Sequence record: ON548433.1
DNA: 39,300 nucleotides
Direction: 5' to 3' (one strand)
From: Escherichia phage vB_EcoP_FFK3
Position 1 is the first letter of the stretch. The number at the start of each line of letters is the position of its first letter. Below are positions 3,974 through 32,577 of this stretch, in pieces. Under the pieces are notes generated by a model, which saw only the letters and a program-made list of their open reading frames with translations, was not told where the DNA came from and did no database searches. The position numbers and the translations under genes were made by a program.

Positions 3974-4168
3974 ATGATTGAGTTAGACTTCAAGAATGAG
4001 GTCCTTAAAGCCTCTCCTATCGTCGGGACCGCTGCGGCTGATGGTGCCAGTCGGTTCTTCTTCGGACTTACACTGAACGAATGGTTCTACGTTGCAGCTA
4101 TCGCGTACACCGTTGTACAGATTGGTGTGCTAGTCTACAAAACGATTAAAGGAGGTGGTAAAACATGA
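3974..4168 (+). CDS. gp17.5: Class II holin (T7 gp17.5-like)
   Basis: 64 aa; strong similarity to recalled T7 gp17.5 (FFGLTLNEWFYVAAIAYTVVQIG); one TM segment; RBS GGAGG. Confidence 0.85.
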   Translation: MIELDFKNEVLKASPIVGTAAADGASRFFFGLTLNEWFYVAAIAYTVVQIGVLVYKTIKGGGKT

Positions 4169-4428
4169 CGCAGATGGACTTAGAGAAGTTCCTCTTGATG
4201 CTTGATACTGAGCGTGCTCGACTTATGCTGCAAGACTTGCGGGATGACACTAAGCGTTCACCTCAGCTCTACAACGCCATTGAGAAGCTGCTTGCTCGTC
4301 ACAACTTTGTGTTAAGCAAGGTGTCTGTTGACGAGAAGACGCTCGCTGATATGGAGGCCCTGAACGCAGAGTATGATAAGGTGCTTTCAGCGACTGAGGA
4401 TAATGACACCGGGTATGGTGTTCAATAA
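4165..4428 (+). CDS. gp18: Terminase small subunit (T7 gp18-like)
   Basis: 87 aa; similar to T7 gp18 (SPQLYNAIEKLLARH); start overlaps holin stop (ATGA). Confidence 0.8.
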   Translation: MTQMDLEKFLLMLDTERARLMLQDLRDDTKRSPQLYNAIEKLLARHNFVLSKVSVDEKTLADMEALNAEYDKVLSATEDNDTGYGVQ

Positions 4429-4430
4429 GC

Positions 4431-4478
4431 GTTAGACTCAAGGTCATTACTGTATGTAGTGGCCTTTATGGTTAACAC
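4431..4478 (+). other. Conserved stem-loop element, putative RNase III processing site (R18.5-like)
   Basis: GACTCAAGGTCAT..GTGGCCTTTATGGTTAAC; stem AAGGTCAT (4440-4447) pairs with GTGGCCTT (4459-4466) with two G-U wobbles; outer GTTA/TAAC pairing. Confidence 0.55.
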
Positions 4479-4529
4479 TAACTAGTGGAGGAGACTCTAC
4501 GTGCAATCTGATAAACCGGGAGGGCAACT

Positions 4530-4979
4530 ATGCTCGAATTTTTAAAGAGAGCGGCTCCGTGGTTACTTGCAGCAGTGATGTTTGCTGGTGGCTACCACAC
4601 CGCTAACAATAAGTGGGAGGCTAAGGTCAATGAAGAATACACCTCGAATCTTAAGGCATCGGAAGATACAAGGCTTGCTATCCAAGCTGAAGTCAACAAA
4701 GTGTCCAAACGGTTTCAGGACGAAATGTCCTCGTTGGAAGGCAGCACTGATAGGATTATTGCTGACCTTAAGTCTGACAATAAGCGGCTGCTCATCCGAG
4801 TCAAACCTACGAGTGGAACCACGCAAAGTGACGGTCGATGCTTCATTGATGGTTACGCCGAACTTGACGAACGAGATGCTAAACGTCTTATCGCCATCGG
4901 AGTGAAAGGAGACAAGTGGATTAAGGCCCTTCAAGACACTGTGAGAGCCTTACAGCAAGAGAAGGAGGTGACGCATTGA
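4530..4979 (+). CDS. gp18.5: Rz-like i-spanin (T7 gp18.5-like)
   Basis: 149 aa; N-terminal TM segment followed by a charged, coiled-coil-like periplasmic region; position after gp18; RBS GGGAGGG. Confidence 0.75.
4630..4905 (+). CDS. Rz1-like o-spanin lipoprotein embedded in the +1 frame of Rz; start codon uncertain
   Basis: +1 frame encodes [18 protein letters not shown] with lipobox Cys codon at 4789-4791 followed by a Pro-rich tail; only upstream ATG is at 4630, giving an implausibly long leader, so the true start is probably a non-ATG codon near 4747-4761. Confidence 0.4.
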   Translation: MKNTPRILRHRKIQGLLSKLKSTKCPNGFRTKCPRWKAALIGLLLTLSLTISGCSSESNLRVEPRKVTVDASLMVTPNLTNEMLNVLSPSE

Positions 4980-7194: not shown

Positions 7195-7444
7195 CGCAAT
7201 CATGGTAACGATTCATGAAAGGAGGTAGGTAGGTGTGAACGAAGATGACTACGTGTCGTTCTCAGAAGAGGACTACCAGACAGAGTGGGAATACGCACAT
7301 GGGAGGAAGAGCTAAGGTCAGTACGTGGATAAAGACTCACTCTACTGACCTTAGCTACTGTAGTCAAGGACTTTAGGTAACACCTTAATAGAAGCTCACT
7401 TAGTGTCATCCTACTTATTGGTCTATCCTAGTGTCGCCTGACCT

Positions 7445-7485
7445 ACGGTCCTTGACCTACAGTGGCTGTGGCCTACAGTAGTGAC
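7445..7485 (+). repeat. Short-repeat array (CCTAC(A/G)GT x3) on the right-end side of the terminal repeat
   Basis: GACCTACGGT, GACCTACAGT, GGCCTACAGT within 40 nt. Confidence 0.6.
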
Positions 7486-7517
7486 GATGAGTTTTGGACC
7501 AAAAGTTTGAGACCACA

Positions 7518-7705
7518 TCTCACAGTTCAAGAACCTCAAGTCTCCCCATAGGCCCTCTTTAAGTCCAGACCAAAGGCCCTACCCAGTCTATCATAAGGCT
7601 GGACCGATGGTCGACGATAGGTCTAGGCTATGGCTGGAGGTCAGGACGATAGGTAGGGACTATTGGTCTGTCTTTGAGTCTCTATCTGTATAGTGTTATA
7701 GTATA
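7518..7705 (+). repeat. Candidate terminal repeat (single copy as in a concatemer junction or circularised assembly); boundaries approximate
   Basis: Begins TCTCACAGT..CCCCATAGG, resembling the recalled first bases of the T7 genome; ends near ..GAGTCTCTATCTGTATAGTG, resembling the end of the T7 terminal repeat; flanked by short-repeat arrays. Confidence 0.45.
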
Positions 7706-7719
7706 ACATTACGTCCTAC

Positions 7720-7815
7720 ACCTACAGTCCTACACCTACAGTCCTACAACCTACAGTCCTACAACCTACAGTCTCAACCATAAGACACCAACACCTACAG
7801 TCAGAGACCTACAGT
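7720..7815 (+). repeat. Short-repeat array (about 6 copies of ACCTACAGT) on the left-end side of the terminal repeat
   Basis: CCTACACCTACAGT x2, CCTACAACCTACAGT x2, then two more CCTACAGT copies; analogous to T7 CCTAAAG repeats. Confidence 0.65.
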
Positions 7816-7926
7816 TACTAGACACAGAGCTATAGACTTAAGGTCAAAGACATGTTAGTCAAAGACTATATCCTCTTACACCATGAGGTCGACGATAGCT
7901 TAATCAATATTATTTCAAATTACCTA

Positions 7927-7962
7927 TTGACTATAGGTCAAGACTATGGCTTAATAGCTTCC
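7927..7962 (+). promoter_or_regulatory. Candidate host sigma70 early promoter (A1-like), weak -10
   Basis: TTGACT at 7927-7932 followed 17-19 nt later by TTAATA/TAATAG. Confidence 0.3.
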
Positions 7963-8067
7963 GTCAACACGACACGGCAACAACCGGATAGTGAAGACGC
8001 CTGGTCATCCCGGTTAAGTAGACAGCCTGATAAGACATACGAACAACAGGCAAACGACAGAAAGTAG

Positions 8068-8103
8068 TTGACAAGATGTAACGATAAGATGTAAGATGTA
8101 CCA
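8068..8103 (+). promoter_or_regulatory. Candidate host sigma70 early promoter (T7 A2/A3-like)
   Basis: TTGACA (8068-8073), 17-18 nt spacer, TAAGAT (8092-8097), then GATGTACCACAT matching the recalled T7 A3 initiation region. Confidence 0.55.
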
Positions 8104-8211
8104 CATCGAAACAACGGTGATGACCAACACTGAAATGGTCTACCTGAAGTCCTCTGACTGAAGGGAATGCTCTTTAACAATCTGGATAAACTCTTAATGT
8201 GCGCCGATAGC

Positions 8212-8268
8212 GATTAACTACAGGGTCTTTGAGTCTACATCTGAAGGCCCTGACTGATAGTCACTAAC
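8212..8268 (+). other. Structured element upstream of the first early gene (R0.3-like hairpin), copy A
   Basis: GATTAACTACAGG..GGCCCTGACTGATAGTCACTAAC; stem CAGGGTC/GGCCCTG; paralogous to copy B with compensatory stem changes. Confidence 0.5.
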
Positions 8269-8275
8269 TTAAAGG

Positions 8276-8530
8276 ATGAACACTATGAAACACTTAAGCA
8301 CAATCACTAATCACAATGAAGTATTCGTGAACACTAAAGGTTATGCGTGGATTCAGCTTAAAGAGATGACAGGAGCGCGTCACCGTGTGGTAGTGCGCAA
8401 GGTCTCAAGCAAGCCGTTCAGCAACTACAGCGTAGATACTGTGCGTATAGACAACGAGACCTACCTGATAGATTCGCAGATAACCGTGAGTCCTACAGCG
8501 GGCGTCTCAGCTCCTTATTTCGCTAACTGA
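8276..8530 (+). CDS. Hypothetical early protein
   Basis: 84-aa ORF, RBS AAAGGA, first gene after the early promoter region; no recognised homolog. Confidence 0.5.
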   Translation: MNTMKHLSTITNHNEVFVNTKGYAWIQLKEMTGARHRVVVRKVSSKPFSNYSVDTVRIDNETYLIDSQITVSPTAGVSAPYFAN

Positions 8531-8534
8531 GAGT

Positions 8535-8585
8535 GATTAACTACAGGTCGTTAGACTTATAGCGGCCTGACTGATAGTCACTAAC
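8535..8585 (+). other. Structured element upstream of ocr (R0.3-like hairpin), copy B
   Basis: GATTAACTACAGG..GGCCTGACTGATAGTCACTAAC; stem CAGGTCG/CGGCCTG. Confidence 0.5.
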
Positions 8586-8617
8586 ATACACACAAACAAC
8601 TTTGAGAGGATATAACT

Positions 8618-8962
8618 ATGGAACGTAACGCTAACGCATACTATGAGCTGCTGGCTGCAACCGTTGAGCTGTTCAATGAGCGTATTCAGTACGACGAAAT
8701 AGCTGAAGGCGATGACTACTATGATGCGCTGCATGAGGTCGTAGACGGTCAGGTTCCGCACTATTACCACGATATTTTTACGGTGATGGCTGCTGATGGT
8801 ATAGACCACGAGTTCGAAGACTCTGGGCTGATGCCTGAGACCAAGGACGTAACGCGTATACTACAAGCTCGCATCTATGAGGCACTGTATAACGATGTGT
8901 ATGATAGCTCGGATGTAGTCTGGTTTGAGGCTGAAGAGAGTGACGAGGAGGACTGCGAGTGA
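8618..8962 (+). CDS. ocr: Ocr-like DNA-mimic anti-restriction protein (T7 gp0.3 homolog)
   Basis: 114 aa, highly acidic; near-identical blocks to recalled T7 Ocr ([43 protein letters not shown]). Confidence 0.85.
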
Positions 8963-9111
8963 TGGTAACTTATGGTCTCTGCCAGCACCACGTCACCAAC
9001 GCCCGGCTTATGGTCAAGACCGGGCAGTTAAACCACGATGCGACTATGCGCCACCTGAAAGCGGTCTACGAGGGCCGCAAGCGTATACACGACAGCTTAC
9101 ACACTGAGTGA
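8962..9111 (+). CDS. Hypothetical small early protein
   Basis: 49-aa ORF whose ATG overlaps the ocr stop (TGATG); preferred over the alternative-frame ORF 8925..9107 for that reason only. Confidence 0.3.
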   Translation: MVTYGLCQHHVTNARLMVKTGQLNHDATMRHLKAVYEGRKRIHDSLHTE

Positions 9112-9118
9112 TAGACGA

Positions 9119-9144
9119 GAGGTCATCGACTGATAGGTGGCCTC
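9119..9144 (+). other. Stem-loop of the AGGTCAT/GTGGCCT family
   Basis: GAGGTCAT (9119-9126), loop CGACTGATAG, GTGGCCTC (9137-9144); same stem architecture as elements at 4440, 12822, 19827. Confidence 0.45.
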
Positions 9145-9177
9145 AAAGATTACCACTTAAATTGATAGAGGTTAACT

Positions 9178-9267
9178 ATGAACATCGGTTACTGGGTATG
9201 CCTGTCTCCAGTTATCTGGATGATAGGCTATGGGTTATACGACTGTATTAAACGGAAATCACTATGA
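9178..9267 (+). CDS. Hypothetical small hydrophobic peptide
   Basis: 29-aa ORF with SD GAGG; stop overlaps next start (ATGA); hydrophobic. Confidence 0.3.
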   Translation: MNIGYWVCLSPVIWMIGYGLYDCIKRKSL

Positions 9268-9461
9268 GTCTTGCACTATTGATAGCCATAGGCTATGGAC
9301 TTATCACCTACGTGCTGGTGAGAGACATCGACAAAGCGCGTAAAGTCTACAAATTCAACTATGTACGTCTGGGCCGCTGGACTGTACGTCAACCTAACGG
9401 ACGATTCATGCGCAACTTAGCGAACGTCTGGGACATAGCAACTATTGGGAGCAAACTGTAA
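9264..9461 (+). CDS. Hypothetical small membrane protein (early)
   Basis: 65 aa; N-terminal TM segment (LALLIAIGYGLITYVLV); translationally coupled to neighbours. Confidence 0.5.
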   Translation: MSLALLIAIGYGLITYVLVRDIDKARKVYKFNYVRLGRWTVRQPNGRFMRNLANVWDIATIGSKL

Positions 9462-9721
9462 TGAAAACCGTATACATTAACAAACCATCTATCCGTAGCC
9501 GTGTAGAGCAAATACAGCGTGACGTGTTCTTACATCGCCGCATGGAGGCAGAGGGCCATAAGTCCGAACTGATGTGTCTGGCGTATGGTGGACGACCGAT
9601 CACTGACGATGGTAGACTTTTAGTCTCAGGCTGGAAGGCGATAGACCAACGGTCAACCATCAAGCACACGACTCATGGTGACTTCAGCCATCTCCACGCT
9701 AACCCACTGATATGCAAGTAA
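9461..9721 (+). CDS. Hypothetical early protein
   Basis: 86-aa ORF; start overlaps previous stop (TAATG). Confidence 0.5.
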   Translation: MKTVYINKPSIRSRVEQIQRDVFLHRRMEAEGHKSELMCLAYGGRPITDDGRLLVSGWKAIDQRSTIKHTTHGDFSHLHANPLICK

Positions 9722-9726
9722 TTATG

Positions 9727-9749
9727 ACTTAACTATCACTATAGGACTC
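9727..9749 (+). promoter_or_regulatory. Phage RNAP promoter immediately upstream of the RNAP gene
   Basis: ACTTAACTATCACTATAGGACTC; exact match to the window consensus; +1 G at 9744, 75 nt before the gene 1 start. Confidence 0.75.
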
Positions 9750-9818
9750 AAGGTCTAAGACTCCAAGTGAAAGACCAAAGAGACTTTAAGTGAAAGACTA
9801 ATAACAAGGACTTTAAGT

Positions 9819-12500
9819 ATGAGCGTCATCTCTATTGATAAACACGACTTCTCTGATGTGTCGAACGCCATTGAGCCGTTTAACCTGCTGGCCGACCACT
9901 ACGGGCAAGATCTTGCAGTCAAACAGCTTCAGCTTGAGCATGAGGCATACACTGAAGGCGAGCGACGTTTCATCAAGAACCTTGAGCGACAGACTGAGCG
10001 CGGGGAACTGGCAGACAATCAGGTCGCCAAGCCTTTGATGCAGACTCTGGTCCCTAAGATTGCGCAAGCCGTCAAGGAGTGGCACGAAGGTCCAGACGGG
10101 AAGCTGTCAACCTCTCGTCCTAGCGTAGCGTTCACCATGTTGAGCACTGAAGAGAAGGCCGTCAAGGACCGCTCACTGCGTATCTCTTGCGAGTCTGCTG
10201 CGGTCATCATACTGAAGGTCATACTCTCCAAGCTGGTCAAGCCTGAGGGGATACCAATTACACCGATGGCTTCCGCGATAGGTCGCACACTTGAGGATGA
10301 AATCCGCTTCGGTCGCATCCGTGACAAGGAGAAGGAGCACTTCAAGAAGGCGATAGCTGATAACCTGAATAAGCGGGCCGGGGCGTCCTACAAGAAAGCC
10401 TACATGCAAGCGGTCGAGGCATCCATGCTGGAGCAAGGACAACTTGAAGATGCGTGGGGAACTTGGAGTCCTACAGAGGCTGTCCACGTTGGCATCAAGA
10501 TGCTTGAGATTGTCATCCAGTCAACACAACTGGTAGAGCTTAAGCGGTACGGTGCTGGCAATGCAGCGGCTGACGTAGAGATGGTCCACCTGTCAGACTT
10601 CTGGGTCAAGAAGATGGCACAACGAGGATTCAGCCTTGCGGGTATCGCTCCAGTCTACCAGCCTTGCGTCGTTCCACCTAAGCCGTGGACTGGTGTCGTA
10701 GGTGGTGGGTACTGGGCCAAAGGTCGCAGACCGTTACCATTGATTCGCTTAGGGTCTAAGTCTGCGGTGGCACGTTATGAAGACGTGTACATGCCTGAAG
10801 TCTATGACGCTGTGAATATCATCCAGAATACACCTTGGAAAGTGAACAAGAAGGTATTAGACGTGGTGAACATGGTCGAGAAGCTGAACAACACGCCTAT
10901 TGATGACATCCCTCAGATGGAACCGCTGAAGCCTGAAGACTATGCGGGTGAGACTGAGGAGGAACTCAAGGCATGGAAGAAGGCTGCTGCTGGTATCTAT
11001 CGCCGCGAGAAGGCCAGACAGTCACGCAGATTATCACTGAGCTTTATCGTTAACCAAGCGAACAAGTTCTCTCAGTTCAAGGCCATCTGGTTCCCGTACA
11101 ACATGGACTGGCGAGGTCGTGTCTACGCTGTGCCGATGTTCAACCCTCAGGGTAACGACATGCAGAAGGGTCTCCTGACTCTGGCAGTCGGTAAGCCTAT
11201 TGGTGCTGATGGTTTCAAATGGCTGAAGGTCCACGGTGCAAACTGTGCTGGTGTCGATAAAGTCACCTTCGAGGAGCGTATCAAGTGGGTGGAAGACAAC
11301 CACGAAAACATCATGGCTGCTGCTAAGGCACCGATGGATAGTATTGAGTGGTGGGGCAAGTTAGACTCTCCGTTCTGTTTCCTCGCGTTCTGCTTCGAGT
11401 ATGCTGGCGTAATGCACCACGGCCTGTCTTACTCCTGCTCGCTGCCGATAGCGTTCGATGGGTCCTGCTCTGGTATTCAGCACTTCAGTGCGATGCTTCG
11501 TGACCACATCGGTGGACATGCAGTAAACCTGACGCCATCCGGTAAGGTACAAGACATCTACCGCATTGTGTCTGACCGCATTGAGGAGGAGCTTAAAGTC
11601 CTGCTGATTAACGGTACTGACAACGAGATGGTCACTCACGAGGATAAGAAAACTGGTGAGATTACCGAACGTATCAAGCTGGGGACACGAGAGCTGGCCC
11701 GGCAGTGGCTGACTTACGGCATGTCACGCAAGGTCACTAAGCGTTCAGTAATGACTCTGGCCTATGGGTCGAAAGAGTACGGCTTCGCAGACCAAGTTTA
11801 TGAGGACATCGTGATGCCAGCGATTGACTCAGGGTCTGGCGCTATGTTCACCGAACCAAGCCAAGCGTCCCGCTTCATGGCTAAGATGATTTGGGAAGCT
11901 GTGAGCGTGACCGTAGTTGCTGCGGTTGACGCGATGAAGTGGCTTCAGGGTGCTGCCAAGCTGCTGGCTGCTGAAGTGAAGGACAAGAAGACTGGAGAAA
12001 TCCTGAAGCCTTGCCTTCCGGTACACTGGGTAACACCTGATGGTTTCCCGGTCTGGCAGGAATACCGCAAGAAGGATACCACTCGTCTGAATCTGATGTT
12101 CTTAGGGTCATTCAACCTTCAACCTACGGTCAACAAAGGCACGAAGAAAGAGCTTGACAAGCACAAGCAGGAGTCAGGCATTAGCCCGAACTTCGTCCAC
12201 TCACAAGATGGTAGCCACCTCCGCAAGACTGTAGTCCACACGCATCGCAAGTATGGCGTGATGTCATTCGCAGTGATTCATGATAGCTTCGGGACCATCC
12301 CGGCTGACGCTGAACATCTGTTCCGTGGTGTCCGTGAGACGATGGTCGAGACCTACCGCGACAACGATGTGCTGCTTGACTTCTACGAGCAGTTTGAATA
12401 CCAGCTTCATGAGAGCCAGCGCGACAAGTTGCCTGAGCTTCCGAAGAAAGGTAAACTGAATATCGAAGACATCTTGTCTTCAGACTTTGCATTCGCTTAA
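9819..12500 (+). CDS. gp1: Single-subunit DNA-directed RNA polymerase (T7 gp1 homolog)
   Basis: 893 aa; conserved T7 RNAP blocks incl. catalytic DGSCSGIQH and C-terminal FAFA; RBS AAGGA. Confidence 0.95.
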   Translation: MSVISIDKHDFSDVSNAIEPFNLLADHYGQDLAVKQLQLEHEAYTEGERRFIKNLERQTERGELADNQVAKPLMQTLVPKIAQAVKEWHEGPDGKLSTSRPSVAFTMLSTEEKAVKDRSLRISCESAAVIILKVILSKLVKPEGIPITPMASAIGRTLEDEIRFGRIRDKEKEHFKKAIADNLNKRAGASYKKAYMQAVEASMLEQGQLEDAWGTWSPTEAVHVGIKMLEIVIQSTQLVELKRYGAGNAAADVEMVHLSDFWVKKMAQRGFSLAGIAPVYQPCVVPPKPWTGVVGGGYWAKGRRPLPLIRLGSKSAVARYEDVYMPEVYDAVNIIQNTPWKVNKKVLDVVNMVEKLNNTPIDDIPQMEPLKPEDYAGETEEELKAWKKAAAGIYRREKARQSRRLSLSFIVNQANKFSQFKAIWFPYNMDWRGRVYAVPMFNPQGNDMQKGLLTLAVGKPIGADGFKWLKVHGANCAGVDKVTFEERIKWVEDNHENIMAAAKAPMDSIEWWGKLDSPFCFLAFCFEYAGVMHHGLSYSCSLPIAFDGSCSGIQHFSAMLRDHIGGHAVNLTPSGKVQDIYRIVSDRIEEELKVLLINGTDNEMVTHEDKKTGEITERIKLGTRELARQWLTYGMSRKVTKRSVMTLAYGSKEYGFADQVYEDIVMPAIDSGSGAMFTEPSQASRFMAKMIWEAVSVTVVAAVDAMKWLQGAAKLLAAEVKDKKTGEILKPCLPVHWVTPDGFPVWQEYRKKDTTRLNLMFLGSFNLQPTVNKGTKKELDKHKQESGISPNFVHSQDGSHLRKTVVHTHRKYGVMSFAVIHDSFGTIPADAEHLFRGVRETMVETYRDNDVLLDFYEQFEYQLHESQRDKLPELPKKGKLNIEDILSSDFAFA

Positions 12501-12793: not shown

Positions 12794-12816
12794 CCTAAAC
12801 TATCACTATAGGATTA
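12794..12816 (+). promoter_or_regulatory. Phage RNAP promoter (phi1.1A-like)
   Basis: CCTAAACTATCACTATAGGATTA; +1 G at 12811. Confidence 0.8.
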
Positions 12817-12857
12817 GACTCAAGGTCATGACTCAAAGTCGTGGCCTTCATGATTAA
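12814..12857 (+). other. Conserved stem-loop element, putative RNase III site (R1.1-like)
   Basis: TTAGACTCAAGGTCATG..GTGGCCTTCATGATTAA; stem AAGGTCAT (12822-12829) with GTGGCCTT (12841-12848). Confidence 0.55.
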
Positions 12858-12888
12858 CCCTATAACCTAAACAACTGGAGCTACAACA

Positions 12889-19550: not shown

Positions 19551-19856
19551 ATGTTACGAAAACTTAAAGCTCGCTACCATCGGTTCATGTACAAATGGTG
19601 GAGTGACGAAGCAACCTGCCTGTCCAACATTCTGGGAGACCAAAGGTTCGAAGGCGTGGGGAGGGTAAAGCTCGATACCATCGGTTCATGTACAAATGGT
19701 GGAGCGACGAAGCAACCTGCCTGTCGAACATTCTGGGAGACCAAAGGTTCGACTCTGAGGCGTGGAAGAGAGCTAACAGGAAGTTTATGTATCACTTCTT
19801 GCGTACAGACTTCTAGGTCTAGACTCAAGGTCATTCATAGCGAGTGGCCTTTATGA
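19551..19856 (+). CDS. Hypothetical small protein, reading frame altered by an internal tandem duplication
   Basis: ATG 19551 with SD GGAGGG; frame runs through duplication copy 1 and then through the downstream stem-loop to 19856; a reconstructed single-copy gene would be 54 aa and stop at 19816. Confidence 0.4.
   Translation: MLRKLKARYHRFMYKWWSDEATCLSNILGDQRFEGVGRVKLDTIGSCTNGGATKQPACRTFWETKGSTLRRGRELTGSLCITSCVQTSRSRLKVIHSEWPL
19565..19765 (+). repeat. Tandem direct duplication (copies 19565-19659 and 19666-19765, offset 101 bp)
   Basis: Copies differ by 3 substitutions plus a 5-bp indel (CTCTG); offset not a multiple of 3. Confidence 0.85.
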
Positions 19857-19860
19857 TTAG
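19819..19860 (+). other. Conserved stem-loop element, putative RNase III site (R4.7-like)
   Basis: CTAGACTCAAGGTCATTC..GTGGCCTTTATGATTAG; stem AAGGTCAT (19827-19834) with GTGGCCTT (19844-19851). Confidence 0.55.
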
Positions 19861-19880
19861 ACTAAAGCGGAGGATTAACC

Positions 19881-30219: not shown

Positions 30220-32577
30220 ATGCCACTAATTACTCAATCAATCAAGAACCTTAAAGGTGGCATTAGCCAACAGCCTGATATACTGAGGTTCTCAGACCAA
30301 GGCGAGGCACAGGTTAACTGCTGGTCATCCGAGAGTGATGGCCTCCAGAAGCGTCCACCTACAGTCTTCAAGCGACGTCTTAACATCGACGTTGGGAGCA
30401 ACCCTAAGTTCCACCTGATTAACCGTGATGAGCATGAGCAGTATTACATCGTGTTCAATGGGTCCAACATTCAGGTAGTTGACTTGAGTGGTAATCAATA
30501 CTCAGTGTCAGGTGCGGTAGATTACGTTAAGTCCTCCAACCCACGAGATGACATCCGTGTCGTTACCGTGGCAGACTATACGTTCGTCGTTAACCGTAAG
30601 GTTGTCGTCAAAGGTGGAAGCGAGAAGTCACACTCTGGTTATAACCGCAAAGCACGAGCTTTAATTAACCTGCGTGGTGGACAGTATGGTCGAACCCTTA
30701 AGGTGGGAATCAACGGTGGCGTTAAGGTCTCGCATAAGCTACCAGCAGGTAATGATGCCGAGAATGACCCGCCTAAGGTGGACGCTCAAGCCATTGGTGC
30801 AGCTCTGAGAGACCTTCTTGTTACTGCCTACCCTACCTTCACGTTTGACCTTGGGTCTGGATTCCTGCTAATCACAGCTCCTTCAGGGACCGATATTAAC
30901 TCAGTGGAGACGGAGGATGGCTACGCTAACCAGCTAATAAGCCCAGTCCTAGACACTGTGCAGACAATCTCTAAACTACCTCTTGCCGCTCCTAATGGGT
31001 ATATCATTAAGATTCAAGGTGAGACAAACAGTAGCGCCGATGAATACTACGTGATGTATGACTCCAACACTAAGACGTGGAAGGAGACAGTGGAGCCGGG
31101 AGTTGTCACTGGGTTCGATGACACCACAATGCCACATGCTCTGGTAAGACAGTCTGACGGCTCCTTTGAGTTCAAGACTCTGGATTGGTCCAAGCGTGGT
31201 TCTGGTAACGATGACACAAACCCTATGCCTAGCTTCGTGGATGCTGCGATTAATGATGTGTTCTTCTACAGGAACAGACTTGGGTTCTTGTCGGGTGAGA
31301 ACGTAATCATGAGCCGTTCAGCCAGCTACTTTTCGTTCTTCCCTAAGAGTGTGGCGACACTGAGTGATGATGACCCTATTGATGTAGCTGTAAGTCACCC
31401 TCGAATCTCAATCCTTAAGTATGCCGTTCCGTTTAGCGAGCAGCTACTACTTTGGTCGGATGAGGTTCAGTTCGTGATGACAAGCTCTGGGGTCCTTACC
31501 TCGAAGTCTATCCAGCTTGATGTAGGCTCAGAGTTTGCCTTAGGCGACAATGCCAGACCGTTCGCTGTAGGACGCTCAGTCTTCTTCTCAGCTCCTCGTG
31601 GGTCATTCACCAGCATTAAGCGATACTTCGCTGTAGCTGATGTGTCTGATGTGAAGGATGCTGATGATACAACCGGTCACGTATTGTCCTACATCCCTAA
31701 CGGGGTGTTTGATATTCAAGGTACAGGGACTGAGAACTACATCTGCGTCAACTCTACAGGTGCATACAACCGTATCTACATCTACAAGTTCTTGTTTAAG
31801 GACGGCGTACAGCTTCAAGCCTCTTGGTCACACTGGGAGTTCCCTAAAGATGATAAGATTCTGGCGTCTGCTTCTATTGGCTCTACCATGTTCATCGTTC
31901 GTCAGCATCAAGGAGGGGTAGACATTGAGCACCTTAAGTTCATCAAGGAGGCAACTGACTTCCCGTCAGAGCCATATAGACTACACATTGACTCCAAGGT
32001 GTCTATGGTAATTCCAATTGGCTCATATAATGCTGACACCTATAAGACTACGGTTGACATTGGTGCTGCTTATGGTGGCAACGCTCCGTCTCCCGGTCGG
32101 TACTATCTGATTGACAGTCAGGGTGCTTATGTGGACCTTGGGGACTTGACCAGTATCTCTACTGTGATTACCCTCAACGGCGATTGGTCAGGACGTACAG
32201 TGTTCATCGGACGGCCCTATCTGATGTCCTACAAGTTCTCACGGTTCCTGATTAAGATTGAAGATGATAGGGGCACTCAGTCTGAAGACACTGGTCGTCT
32301 ACAGCTTCGTCGGGCCTGGGTCAACTACAAGGACACTGGCGCTCTGAGACTCATTGTCAGAAACGGTGAGCGAGAGTTCGTTAACACCTTTAATGGGTAC
32401 ACCCTTGGTCAGCAAACCATAGGGACTACTAACATTGGTGACGGGCAGTATCGCTTCGCTATGAATGGTAACGCATTAACCACGAGTCTAACCTTAGAGT
32501 CCGACTATCCTACCCCAGTGTCCATCGTTGGGTGTGGCTGGGAGGCATCATACGCTAAGAAAGCTCGTTCAATCTAA
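30220..32577 (+). CDS. gp12: Tail tubular protein B (T7 gp12 homolog)
   Basis: 785 aa; N-terminus ITQSIKNLKGGISQQPDILRF matches T7 gp12; RBS AAGGAGGG. Confidence 0.9.
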   Translation: MPLITQSIKNLKGGISQQPDILRFSDQGEAQVNCWSSESDGLQKRPPTVFKRRLNIDVGSNPKFHLINRDEHEQYYIVFNGSNIQVVDLSGNQYSVSGAVDYVKSSNPRDDIRVVTVADYTFVVNRKVVVKGGSEKSHSGYNRKARALINLRGGQYGRTLKVGINGGVKVSHKLPAGNDAENDPPKVDAQAIGAALRDLLVTAYPTFTFDLGSGFLLITAPSGTDINSVETEDGYANQLISPVLDTVQTISKLPLAAPNGYIIKIQGETNSSADEYYVMYDSNTKTWKETVEPGVVTGFDDTTMPHALVRQSDGSFEFKTLDWSKRGSGNDDTNPMPSFVDAAINDVFFYRNRLGFLSGENVIMSRSASYFSFFPKSVATLSDDDPIDVAVSHPRISILKYAVPFSEQLLLWSDEVQFVMTSSGVLTSKSIQLDVGSEFALGDNARPFAVGRSVFFSAPRGSFTSIKRYFAVADVSDVKDADDTTGHVLSYIPNGVFDIQGTGTENYICVNSTGAYNRIYIYKFLFKDGVQLQASWSHWEFPKDDKILASASIGSTMFIVRQHQGGVDIEHLKFIKEATDFPSEPYRLHIDSKVSMVIPIGSYNADTYKTTVDIGAAYGGNAPSPGRYYLIDSQGAYVDLGDLTSISTVITLNGDWSGRTVFIGRPYLMSYKFSRFLIKIEDDRGTQSEDTGRLQLRRAWVNYKDTGALRLIVRNGEREFVNTFNGYTLGQQTIGTTNIGDGQYRFAMNGNALTTSLTLESDYPTPVSIVGCGWEASYAKKARSI

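Follow-up and report, generated by a model that had tools for sequence, protein, structure and literature searches.

Two short elements of similar sequence stand a little upstream of two neighboring early genes of Escherichia phage vB_EcoP_FFK3, and the question that they raise is what they do there: whether they act in the DNA or in the RNA, and if in the RNA, by what means. In the window, by which we mean the whole stretch of 39,300 nucleotides analyzed here (record ON548433.1), the first element, E1, reads GATTAACTACAGGGTCTTTGAGTCTACATCTGAAGGCCCTGACTGATAGTCACTAAC (8212–8268) and the second, E2, reads GATTAACTACAGGTCGTTAGACTTATAGCGGCCTGACTGATAGTCACTAAC (8535–8585). They share a 3′ block of 16 nucleotides (nt), CCTGACTGATAGTCAC, of which the 39.3 kb hold two exact copies, and a 5′ block, GATTAACTACAGG, with exact copies in E1 and E2 only. 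When up to three mismatches are allowed, the 16-mer has three matches against 0.52 expected, a count that none of 100 shuffles attained. On the strength of these shuffles, a chance likeness of E1 and E2 is rejected. An earlier note on this DNA had described two look-alike elements with common blocks upstream of two early genes, and the sequence reads exactly as it claimed. Its limits are right for the core of each element, while the true 5′ limits lie slightly further out, the lower stems beginning at about 8209 and 8532.

The neighborhood is that of a T7-group phage at the start of infection. A megablast search of 7800–9900 against GenBank phages found the stretch to be ~98% identical to Escherichia phage vB_EcoP_F (KY295894), a K1F-like coliphage of the T7 group, genus Kayfunavirus, whose genome measures 39,300 bp; 265 records matched in this search. 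Over the 5.1 kb between 6300 and 11400, the two differ by 93 substitutions, 61 of them transitions, and by no indels. The region 7800–9900 is the class I, host-transcribed part of such a genome, in which sigma-70-type promoters are followed by gene 0.2, ocr, several small genes and the gene for the T7-type RNA polymerase (gene 1, 9819–12500), the last lying downstream of E1, E2 and a third site, S3. The best sigma-70-type early promoter is found at 8068–8097 on the + strand (TTGACA-18-TAAGAT, 10/12 consensus matches). Its context aligns with the A3–R0.3 stretch of T7, and on that alignment it is the counterpart of T7 A3. Host RNA polymerase starting here would run through E1, gene 0.2, E2 and ocr and on to gene 1; E1 itself lies ~110 nt 3′ of the last early sigma-70 promoter. 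Two features further upstream deserve mention in their own right. Immediately 5′ of the early promoters is a short direct-repeat array (7701–7815), built of CCTACACCTACAGT and CCTACAACCTACAGTC in at least five copies, which looks like the arrays that T7-group genomes have near their left ends. A 71-aa ORF, F_8 (7852–8067), overlaps the early-promoter region, its stop codon falling 1 nt short of the −35 hexamer of the 8068–8097 promoter; the name it bears in KY295894, “alpha,alpha-trehalase,” looks implausible given the size and position of the protein.

The two genes that follow the elements are of rather different standing. Gene 0.2 (8285–8530, + strand) encodes 81 aa, belongs to PHROG 10124, of unknown function, and is an accessory gene situated between E1 and E2. 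The other, ocr (gene 0.3; 8618–8962, + strand), encodes the anti-restriction DNA mimic of 114 aa. Their Shine–Dalgarno sequences are AAGGA at 8272–8276 and GAGAGGA at 8604–8610, respectively. A gene after E1 had been proposed with a start at 8276; the gene is indeed present, but the ATG at 8276 falls within the Shine–Dalgarno AAGGAUG, and the likely start is the ATG at 8285, as in F_9 and in K1F gp0.2.

Both elements fold into one and the same bipartite hairpin, composed of a lower stem, an asymmetric internal loop of 4 nt/5 nt and an upper hairpin of 10–12 bp. The lower stem pairs GAUUA with UAGUC and reaches 8 bp in E2. In E1 (8208–8270, + strand), this stem joins 8212–8216 to 8258–8262 and extends over a C•A mismatch to a further helix of 8209–8210 with 8264–8265. 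The internal loop is made of 8217–8220 and 8253–8257, the upper stem pairs 8221–8230 with 8243–8252 and adds two more pairs, and the apical loop covers 8233–8239. In E2 (8531–8587, + strand), the lower stem pairs 8532–8539 with 8575–8582, the internal loop comprises 8540–8543 and 8570–8574, and the upper stem of 8544–8553 with 8560–8569 is capped by the loop 8554–8559. E2 starts 1 nt past the stop codon of gene 0.2 and ends 30 nt 5′ of ocr. The differences from KY295894 that fall in or beside the two elements are 8208 T/C, 8211 C/T and 8558 T/C, and the 5′ flank of E1 in that genome reads CAGTGATTAAC, so that its E1 lower stem is a perfect 7-bp helix, like that of E2, and the common 5′ block measures 16 nt. 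Measured against dinucleotide shuffles, the 52–57-nt cores have fold z-scores of −2.8 for E1 and −4.2 for E2. A small alternative hairpin, UGACU-GAU-AGUCA, can form in the 3′ arm, where it competes with the lower stem; the cut predicted below would destroy it. Rfam 15, searched at its gathering thresholds over the whole 39.3-kb stretch, gave no match, which means only that no curated family reaches threshold there.

The earlier note had further observed that the stems differ between the two copies while their pairing is preserved, and so they do. In a common register of ten upper-stem pairs, five differ between E1 and E2: three are changed on both sides (G-C to U-G, C-G to G-C and U-G to A-U), two on a single side, and all still pair. 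An internal-loop variant together with its closing pair, ACUA-C...G-ACUGA, is common to E1 and E2 and absent from the other four sites of this genome, which are described below. Because this variant is confined to the two of them, E1 and E2 are mutually closest relatives, and to call the element “duplicated,” as the note did, is reasonable.

The same pairing is kept far beyond this one genome. Forty-one loci, gathered by homology to Ocr or gp0.2, yielded 63 sites under a covariance model of the element (model R1, whose construction is given below), and 61 distinct rows were aligned. Standard pairs fill 94.9% of the pair cells of these 61 sites, versus 30–55% when the 3′ partner is slid by 1–3 columns; two-sided changes occur at 12 of the 18 pairs (166 cells); and the observed covariation score was matched in 0 of 500 shuffles. 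Because the alignment was fitted to the model, these counts are somewhat inflated, and they lean toward structure. The minimum-energy folds of 38 of 40 distinct ocr-upstream regions take the same bipartite shape, which is kept even where nearly all of the sequence has been replaced, AGGUUA pairing with UAACCU and CUAGGGUAUUC with GAGUACCCUAG. All 98 matches found in relatives at E ≤ 0.01 (63 + 20 + 15) are on the + (transcribed) strand, and at one pair position U-G is present in 35 of the 61 sites. Strand-specific covariation that includes G-U pairs reveals selection on RNA structure. The functional RNA hairpin that had been proposed from covariation between two copies is in this way borne out by 61 distinct related sites, and the outcome named in advance as its refutation, a failure of pairing in related phages, did not appear.

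Several relatives carry unusual versions of the sites. Among the Kayfunavirus contigs of IMG/VR are E1 variants with an apical insertion of ~23 nt (821–906; 716–801), for which a branched top is predicted over an unchanged base, and further IMG/VR contigs hold a larger version, an 86-nt site with a long extended upper stem. Phage ECG4 (MN218775.2) has two degenerate E2-type sites, at 1022–1078 and 1371–1440. In one of the two, three upper-stem pairs are mismatched, including C•C at the position termed pb2 below; in the other, an internal duplication of 18 nt has taken the place of the upper stem's 3′ strand. Sequencing or assembly errors could account for these sites, and so could real decay. 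As to how widely the element occurs, an exact-pattern scan of IMG/VR with the E2 5′ arm found 11 loci, several on clearly unrelated contigs. In GenBank, 121 phage records contain the E2 sequence, and an RNase III label is missing from all 60 of those listed.

What function would such a hairpin serve at this place? Sequence comparison points to E1 and E2 being processing signals for the host RNase III in the early, host-polymerase transcript of a K1F-like phage, a reading to which we assign a probability of roughly 0.88. An alignment to T7 places E1, together with ~60 nt of its upstream flank, in the interval from promoter A3 to gene 0.3, where T7 reads gcggataactcaagggtatcgcaaggtgccctttatgatattcactaat. 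In the T3 RefSeq record, the aligned stretch contains a curated “RNase III recognition site R0.3,” and R0.3 has been placed between A3 and gene 0.3 (PMC3276506). By the evidence of position and alignment, E1 is the orthologue of T7/T3 R0.3 in both location and sequence.

The wider family was delineated with model R1, seeded with eight sequences (E1, E2, S3, T7 R0.3 and four ocr-upstream elements of IMG/VR contigs) under a hand-written structure. A MAFFT alignment of ten divergent sites, in which sites of the GGUUA/UAACC type were misaligned, was dropped in favor of this eight-sequence alignment. The T3 RefSeq record provides an independent test because it has curated stem_loop features, whereas the T7 records NC_001604/V01146 are without RNase III features. 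When the whole genome of T3, which is outside the seed, was searched unfiltered, the top six matches were the curated sites R4.7, R0.3, R0.5, R1.1, R6.5 and R18.5, that is, 6 of 10 curated RNase III recognition sites, with limits no more than 5 nt from the curated ones. The T3 sites named R1 and R1.3 gave weak partial matches to the model, and curated sites R3.8 and R13 were missed in the same unfiltered whole-genome search. T7 has eight matches, on the + strand and intergenic, which we take to be R0.3 (a member of the seed), R0.5, R1, R1.1, R1.3, R4.7, R6.5 and R18.5; the R1 sites of both T7 and T3 are partial matches only, at 18–20 bits. The T3 terminal repeat also holds an unannotated partial match of 20.2 bits (E = 0.006; 88–129 of one T3 locus and 31065–31106 of another), which may be due to chance.

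In the window, model R1 has six matches, all on the + strand, all intergenic and most of them abutting a stop codon. E2 is the top match with 69.7 bits, and E1 scores 60.9 bits. S3, at the R0.5 position (9106–9162, 60.5 bits), overlaps the stop codon of gene 0.35. Of the other three, one lies at the R1.1 position downstream of gene 1 (12809–12866, 36.9 bits), one at the T3 R4.7 position immediately 5′ of the DNA polymerase gene (19814–19868, 37.5 bits) and one at the R18.5 position (4427–4484, 51.2 bits), between an 87-aa ORF (4165–4428) and a 149-aa ORF (4530–4979) that are named gene 18 and gene 18.5 from position alone. The gene contexts of the sites match the T3 positions of R18.5, R0.3, R0.5, R1.1 and R4.7, and when the sites of this phage, T7 and T3 are aligned side by side they form one family, (R)AGUGAUAnACUCAAGGUC...GUGGCCUUUAUGAUUAUCACU. 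A weaker hairpin at 9735–9800, in the 97-nt gap 5′ of gene 1, occupies the place of the T7/T3 R1 site and went undetected by the model.

The composition of the upper stem can be compared with the substrate preferences of the enzyme. According to Pertzev and Nicholson, the proximal box has G-C at pb1, A-U or U-A at pb2 and A-U at pb3; G-C or C-G at pb2 strongly inhibits RNase III binding, and the distal box consists of U-A and U-G (PMC1540722). When the boxes are mapped through the numbering of that study (C9:G30 = pb2) and through T7 R1.1, upper-stem pairs 1, 2 and 3 correspond to pb3, pb2 and pb1. E1 and E2 both have G-C at pb1 and A-U at pb2. Of the 61 sites, 60 have G-C at pb1 and one has G-U; at pb2, A-U is found in 45 and U-A in the other 16, and neither G-C nor C-G occurs there. 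The pair at pb3 deviates: E1 and E2 have C-G there and not A-U, the optimum for minimal substrates, and the pair is free to vary across the 61 sites (G-C 24, C-G 23, A-U 8, U-A 4), so agreement with the minimal-substrate rule is partial. Natural sites endowed with a lower stem may tolerate a non-optimal pb3. The distal box is canonical in E2 (U-A, U-G) and U-A/U-A in E1. The earlier note had left the choice between an RNase III site and a translational enhancer. Homology to T7 R0.3, the curated T3 sites, covariation and the proximal-box rule together favor the former, and an effect on translation would be at most a secondary consequence of processing.

Other roles have been, or could be, ascribed to hairpins of this kind. 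The upper stems are G+C-rich, as are those of rho-independent terminators, and the GenBank record of vB_EcoA_ASO2B (MZ726794) labels the counterpart of E2 and two downstream elements “rho-independent terminator,” citing WebGeSTer; on this account the hairpins would attenuate early transcription. Yet neither stem is followed by a U-tract, the 3′ sequence being GACUGAUAGUCACUAAC with the flank GACUGAUAGUCAC, a terminator scan of 7300–9900 found none, and a terminator would have no use for the conserved lower stem and internal loop. Gene 1, moreover, must be reached by host polymerase through all three sites, and the T3 record lists the homologous elements as curated RNase III sites while the early terminator, TE, is a separate feature after the ligase gene. 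The absent U-tract and the need for read-through rule out intrinsic terminators as candidates, and we accord attenuation only a vanishing probability. The three “terminators” of MZ726794 (966–1001, 1766–1798 and 2204–2239) themselves have no U-tract and score 54–70 bits against the RNase III site model; their labels are probably mis-annotations, and ones that would wrongly imply that gene 1 is beyond the reach of host polymerase. A subtler proposal is that the structures work mainly without cleavage, be it as translational modulators or standby sites, as sites for a regulatory protein or as places where RNase III merely binds. It draws on the location of both sites 15–45 nt upstream of a Shine–Dalgarno sequence and on the conservation of the intervening segment GAUAGUCACUAAC. 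Sites of the same family, however, also occur after genes and far from starts, as at 12809–12866 and 4427–4484; ribosome-binding sites are not consistently sequestered in the predicted folds; and the family takes in the curated RNase III sites of T3 as well as T7 R0.5 and R1.1, working sites that have found use as modules for RNase III cleavage (PMC3643576). A function chiefly independent of cleavage is, in our estimation, improbable.

A different kind of explanation dispenses with RNA altogether and regards the common sequences as recombination linkers at the DNA level, or as the scars of a duplication. It accounts readily for the identical flanks of E1 and E2 and for the permutation, among relatives, of the cassettes that lie between such sites. 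It does not account for pairing that covaries in a strand-specific manner and admits G-U pairs, for matches in relatives that are without exception on the transcribed strand, or for pairing whose loss, in the homologues sampled, was seen only in the two degenerate ECG4 copies. A linker role can coexist with an RNA function and cannot replace it, and elements devoid of any RNA function are scarcely credible here.

Processing by host RNase III, the preferred reading, would proceed in a simple manner. The early transcript would read through both elements, each of which would fold to about two helix turns (a lower stem of 5–8 bp, the 4 nt/5 nt internal loop and an upper hairpin of 10–12 bp), and RNase III would cleave each of them just once, at the 3′ side of the internal loop. 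The T7 cleavage coordinates were reportedly given by Dunn and Studier in 1983, and on these coordinates cleavage falls 14–15 nt 5′ of the 3′ end of the model match at R0.3 and at five other T7 sites. From this constant distance at six T7 sites, cuts are predicted between U8255 and G8256 in E1 and between U8572 and G8573 in E2, in both cases by homology with T7 R0.3, and between A9147 and G9148 in S3. Three products would result: a leader RNA with the E1 hairpin at its end; a gene 0.2 mRNA of ~317 nt (8256–8572) with the E2 hairpin as its 3′ end; and an ocr/0.35 mRNA of 575 nt (8573–9147), with the aforementioned GAUAGUCACUAAC as its 5′ end and S3 at its other end. The 3′ hairpins would shield each message from 3′–5′ exonucleases, and the uniformly short 5′ leaders would keep the ribosome-binding sites free. 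Such a scheme has precedent in the behavior of the enzyme, since internal loops confine the enzyme to one phosphodiester, and the 3′ hairpin that is left behind gives protection from 3′–5′ exonucleases (PMC1540722). T7 transcripts are cut by RNase III at specific sites, and T7 nonetheless grows on hosts that lack the enzyme (PMC6938266), so the sites are probably not essential. The sequence, the fold, the homology, the covariation, the membership in the family and the gene context are observed, and from them we infer cleavage, its exact bond and its effects on stability and translation. The sites would indicate where the mRNAs of gene 0.2 and ocr are likely to begin and end, which is useful for the engineering of K1F-type therapeutic phages and for the insertion of payload genes into the early region.

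E2 had also been viewed as a second leader. It is more aptly taken for the 3′ boundary of a cassette that has been inserted. A comparison of about 20 related genomes shows a modular pattern. Several relatives have no cassette: gene 0.2 is absent, and E1 stands directly before ocr. In others a single cassette, which is either gene 0.2 or a 58-aa gene unrelated to it, separates E1 from ocr, and some have two, gene 0.2 together with an unrelated 92-aa gene. The order of these two is not fixed, the 92-aa gene preceding 0.2 in a Vec13-like contig and following it in Peacock, T147P5 and ECG4. Each inserted gene is immediately followed by an E2-type site, the 5′ end of which abuts or overlaps the stop codon (TGA|GAGUGAUUA, UAGUGAUUA, CAGUGAUUA). 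Each cassette gene retains this downstream site as its own, that of the 92-aa gene having the same loop, GACUGA, and each likewise retains its own leader after UCACUAAC. The attachment of E2-type sites to at least three unrelated upstream genes led to the rejection of simple duplication with compensatory drift as the whole story. As for the products of the cassettes, Pfam has no family for the three proteins, and PHROGs places each of them only in a function-unknown family; accessory early genes are candidates for anti-defence functions.

That cassettes differ in order and yet keep their own site and leader suggests exchange within the common 3′ arm. Conceivably, then, RNase III sites in K1F-like phages double as portable cassette boundaries, a proposal that the sequence comparison leaves evenly balanced between true and false. 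The exchanged unit would comprise the leader, the ORF, the stop codon, and the 5′ arm and upper hairpin of the E2-type site, and would be exactly the RNA set free by processing. Insertion, deletion and reordering would take place by homologous recombination in the ~20-nt 3′ arm, CCUGACUGAUAGUCACUAAC, which is common to all E-type sites. In ST1749 (PQ390404), a chimeric site at 1902–1956 combines an S3-type 5′ arm, AAGTGACAGAC, with an E-type 3′ arm, CCTGACTGATAGTCA, and adjoins an extra 75-aa gene on that gene's 5′ side; recombination within a site seems to have left a direct trace here. If the proposal is true, these loci would offer a concrete, testable case in which a functional RNA signal is also the boundary at which accessory early genes recombine.

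Ever since the T7 sequence appeared, T7-group RNase III sites have belonged to textbook knowledge. Searches of the literature for RNase III in connection with K1F or Kayfunavirus, and for early-gene exchange at RNase III sites, returned nothing relevant in what is searchable. The kind of site is thus long known, and it is these members that are unannotated, including in the records of vB_EcoP_F and K1F. Like R0.3 of T7 and T3, E1 sits between the last of the early promoters and the first early genes, and has a lower stem, an internal loop, an upper hairpin and a conserved 3′ segment, ...GAUAnUCACUAA. It differs in the internal loop and closing pair (ACUA-C...G-ACUGA in E1 vs ACUC-A...U-UUAUGA in R0.3), in its longer apical part, composed of 10 bp, a bulge, 2 bp and a 7-nt loop, and in being followed by gene 0.2, whereas R0.3 is followed directly by gene 0.3. 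E2 resembles the inter-cistronic sites R0.5 and R1.1 of T7 and R0.5, R1.1 and R4.7 of T3 in starting at or beside an upstream stop codon and preceding the next leader. Its upper stem has seven of its ten pairs in common with T7 R1.1, among them pb1, pb2 and the two pairs of the distal box, while its lower stem and internal loop are those of E1 and not those of the other sites of the genome. Unlike the inter-cistronic sites of T7 and T3, it accompanies an accessory gene that is missing from many relatives.

The likeness extends from individual sites to a general scheme, the modular theory of phage evolution, in which conserved boundary sequences have a part. As at the boundaries envisaged there, identical short sequences flank swappable cassettes, and the order of two cassettes varies. 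What sets the present boundaries apart is that the boundary is itself a putative RNA processing signal, so that, as the ~20 genomes compared here suggest, the unit of exchange would equal one mature mRNA.
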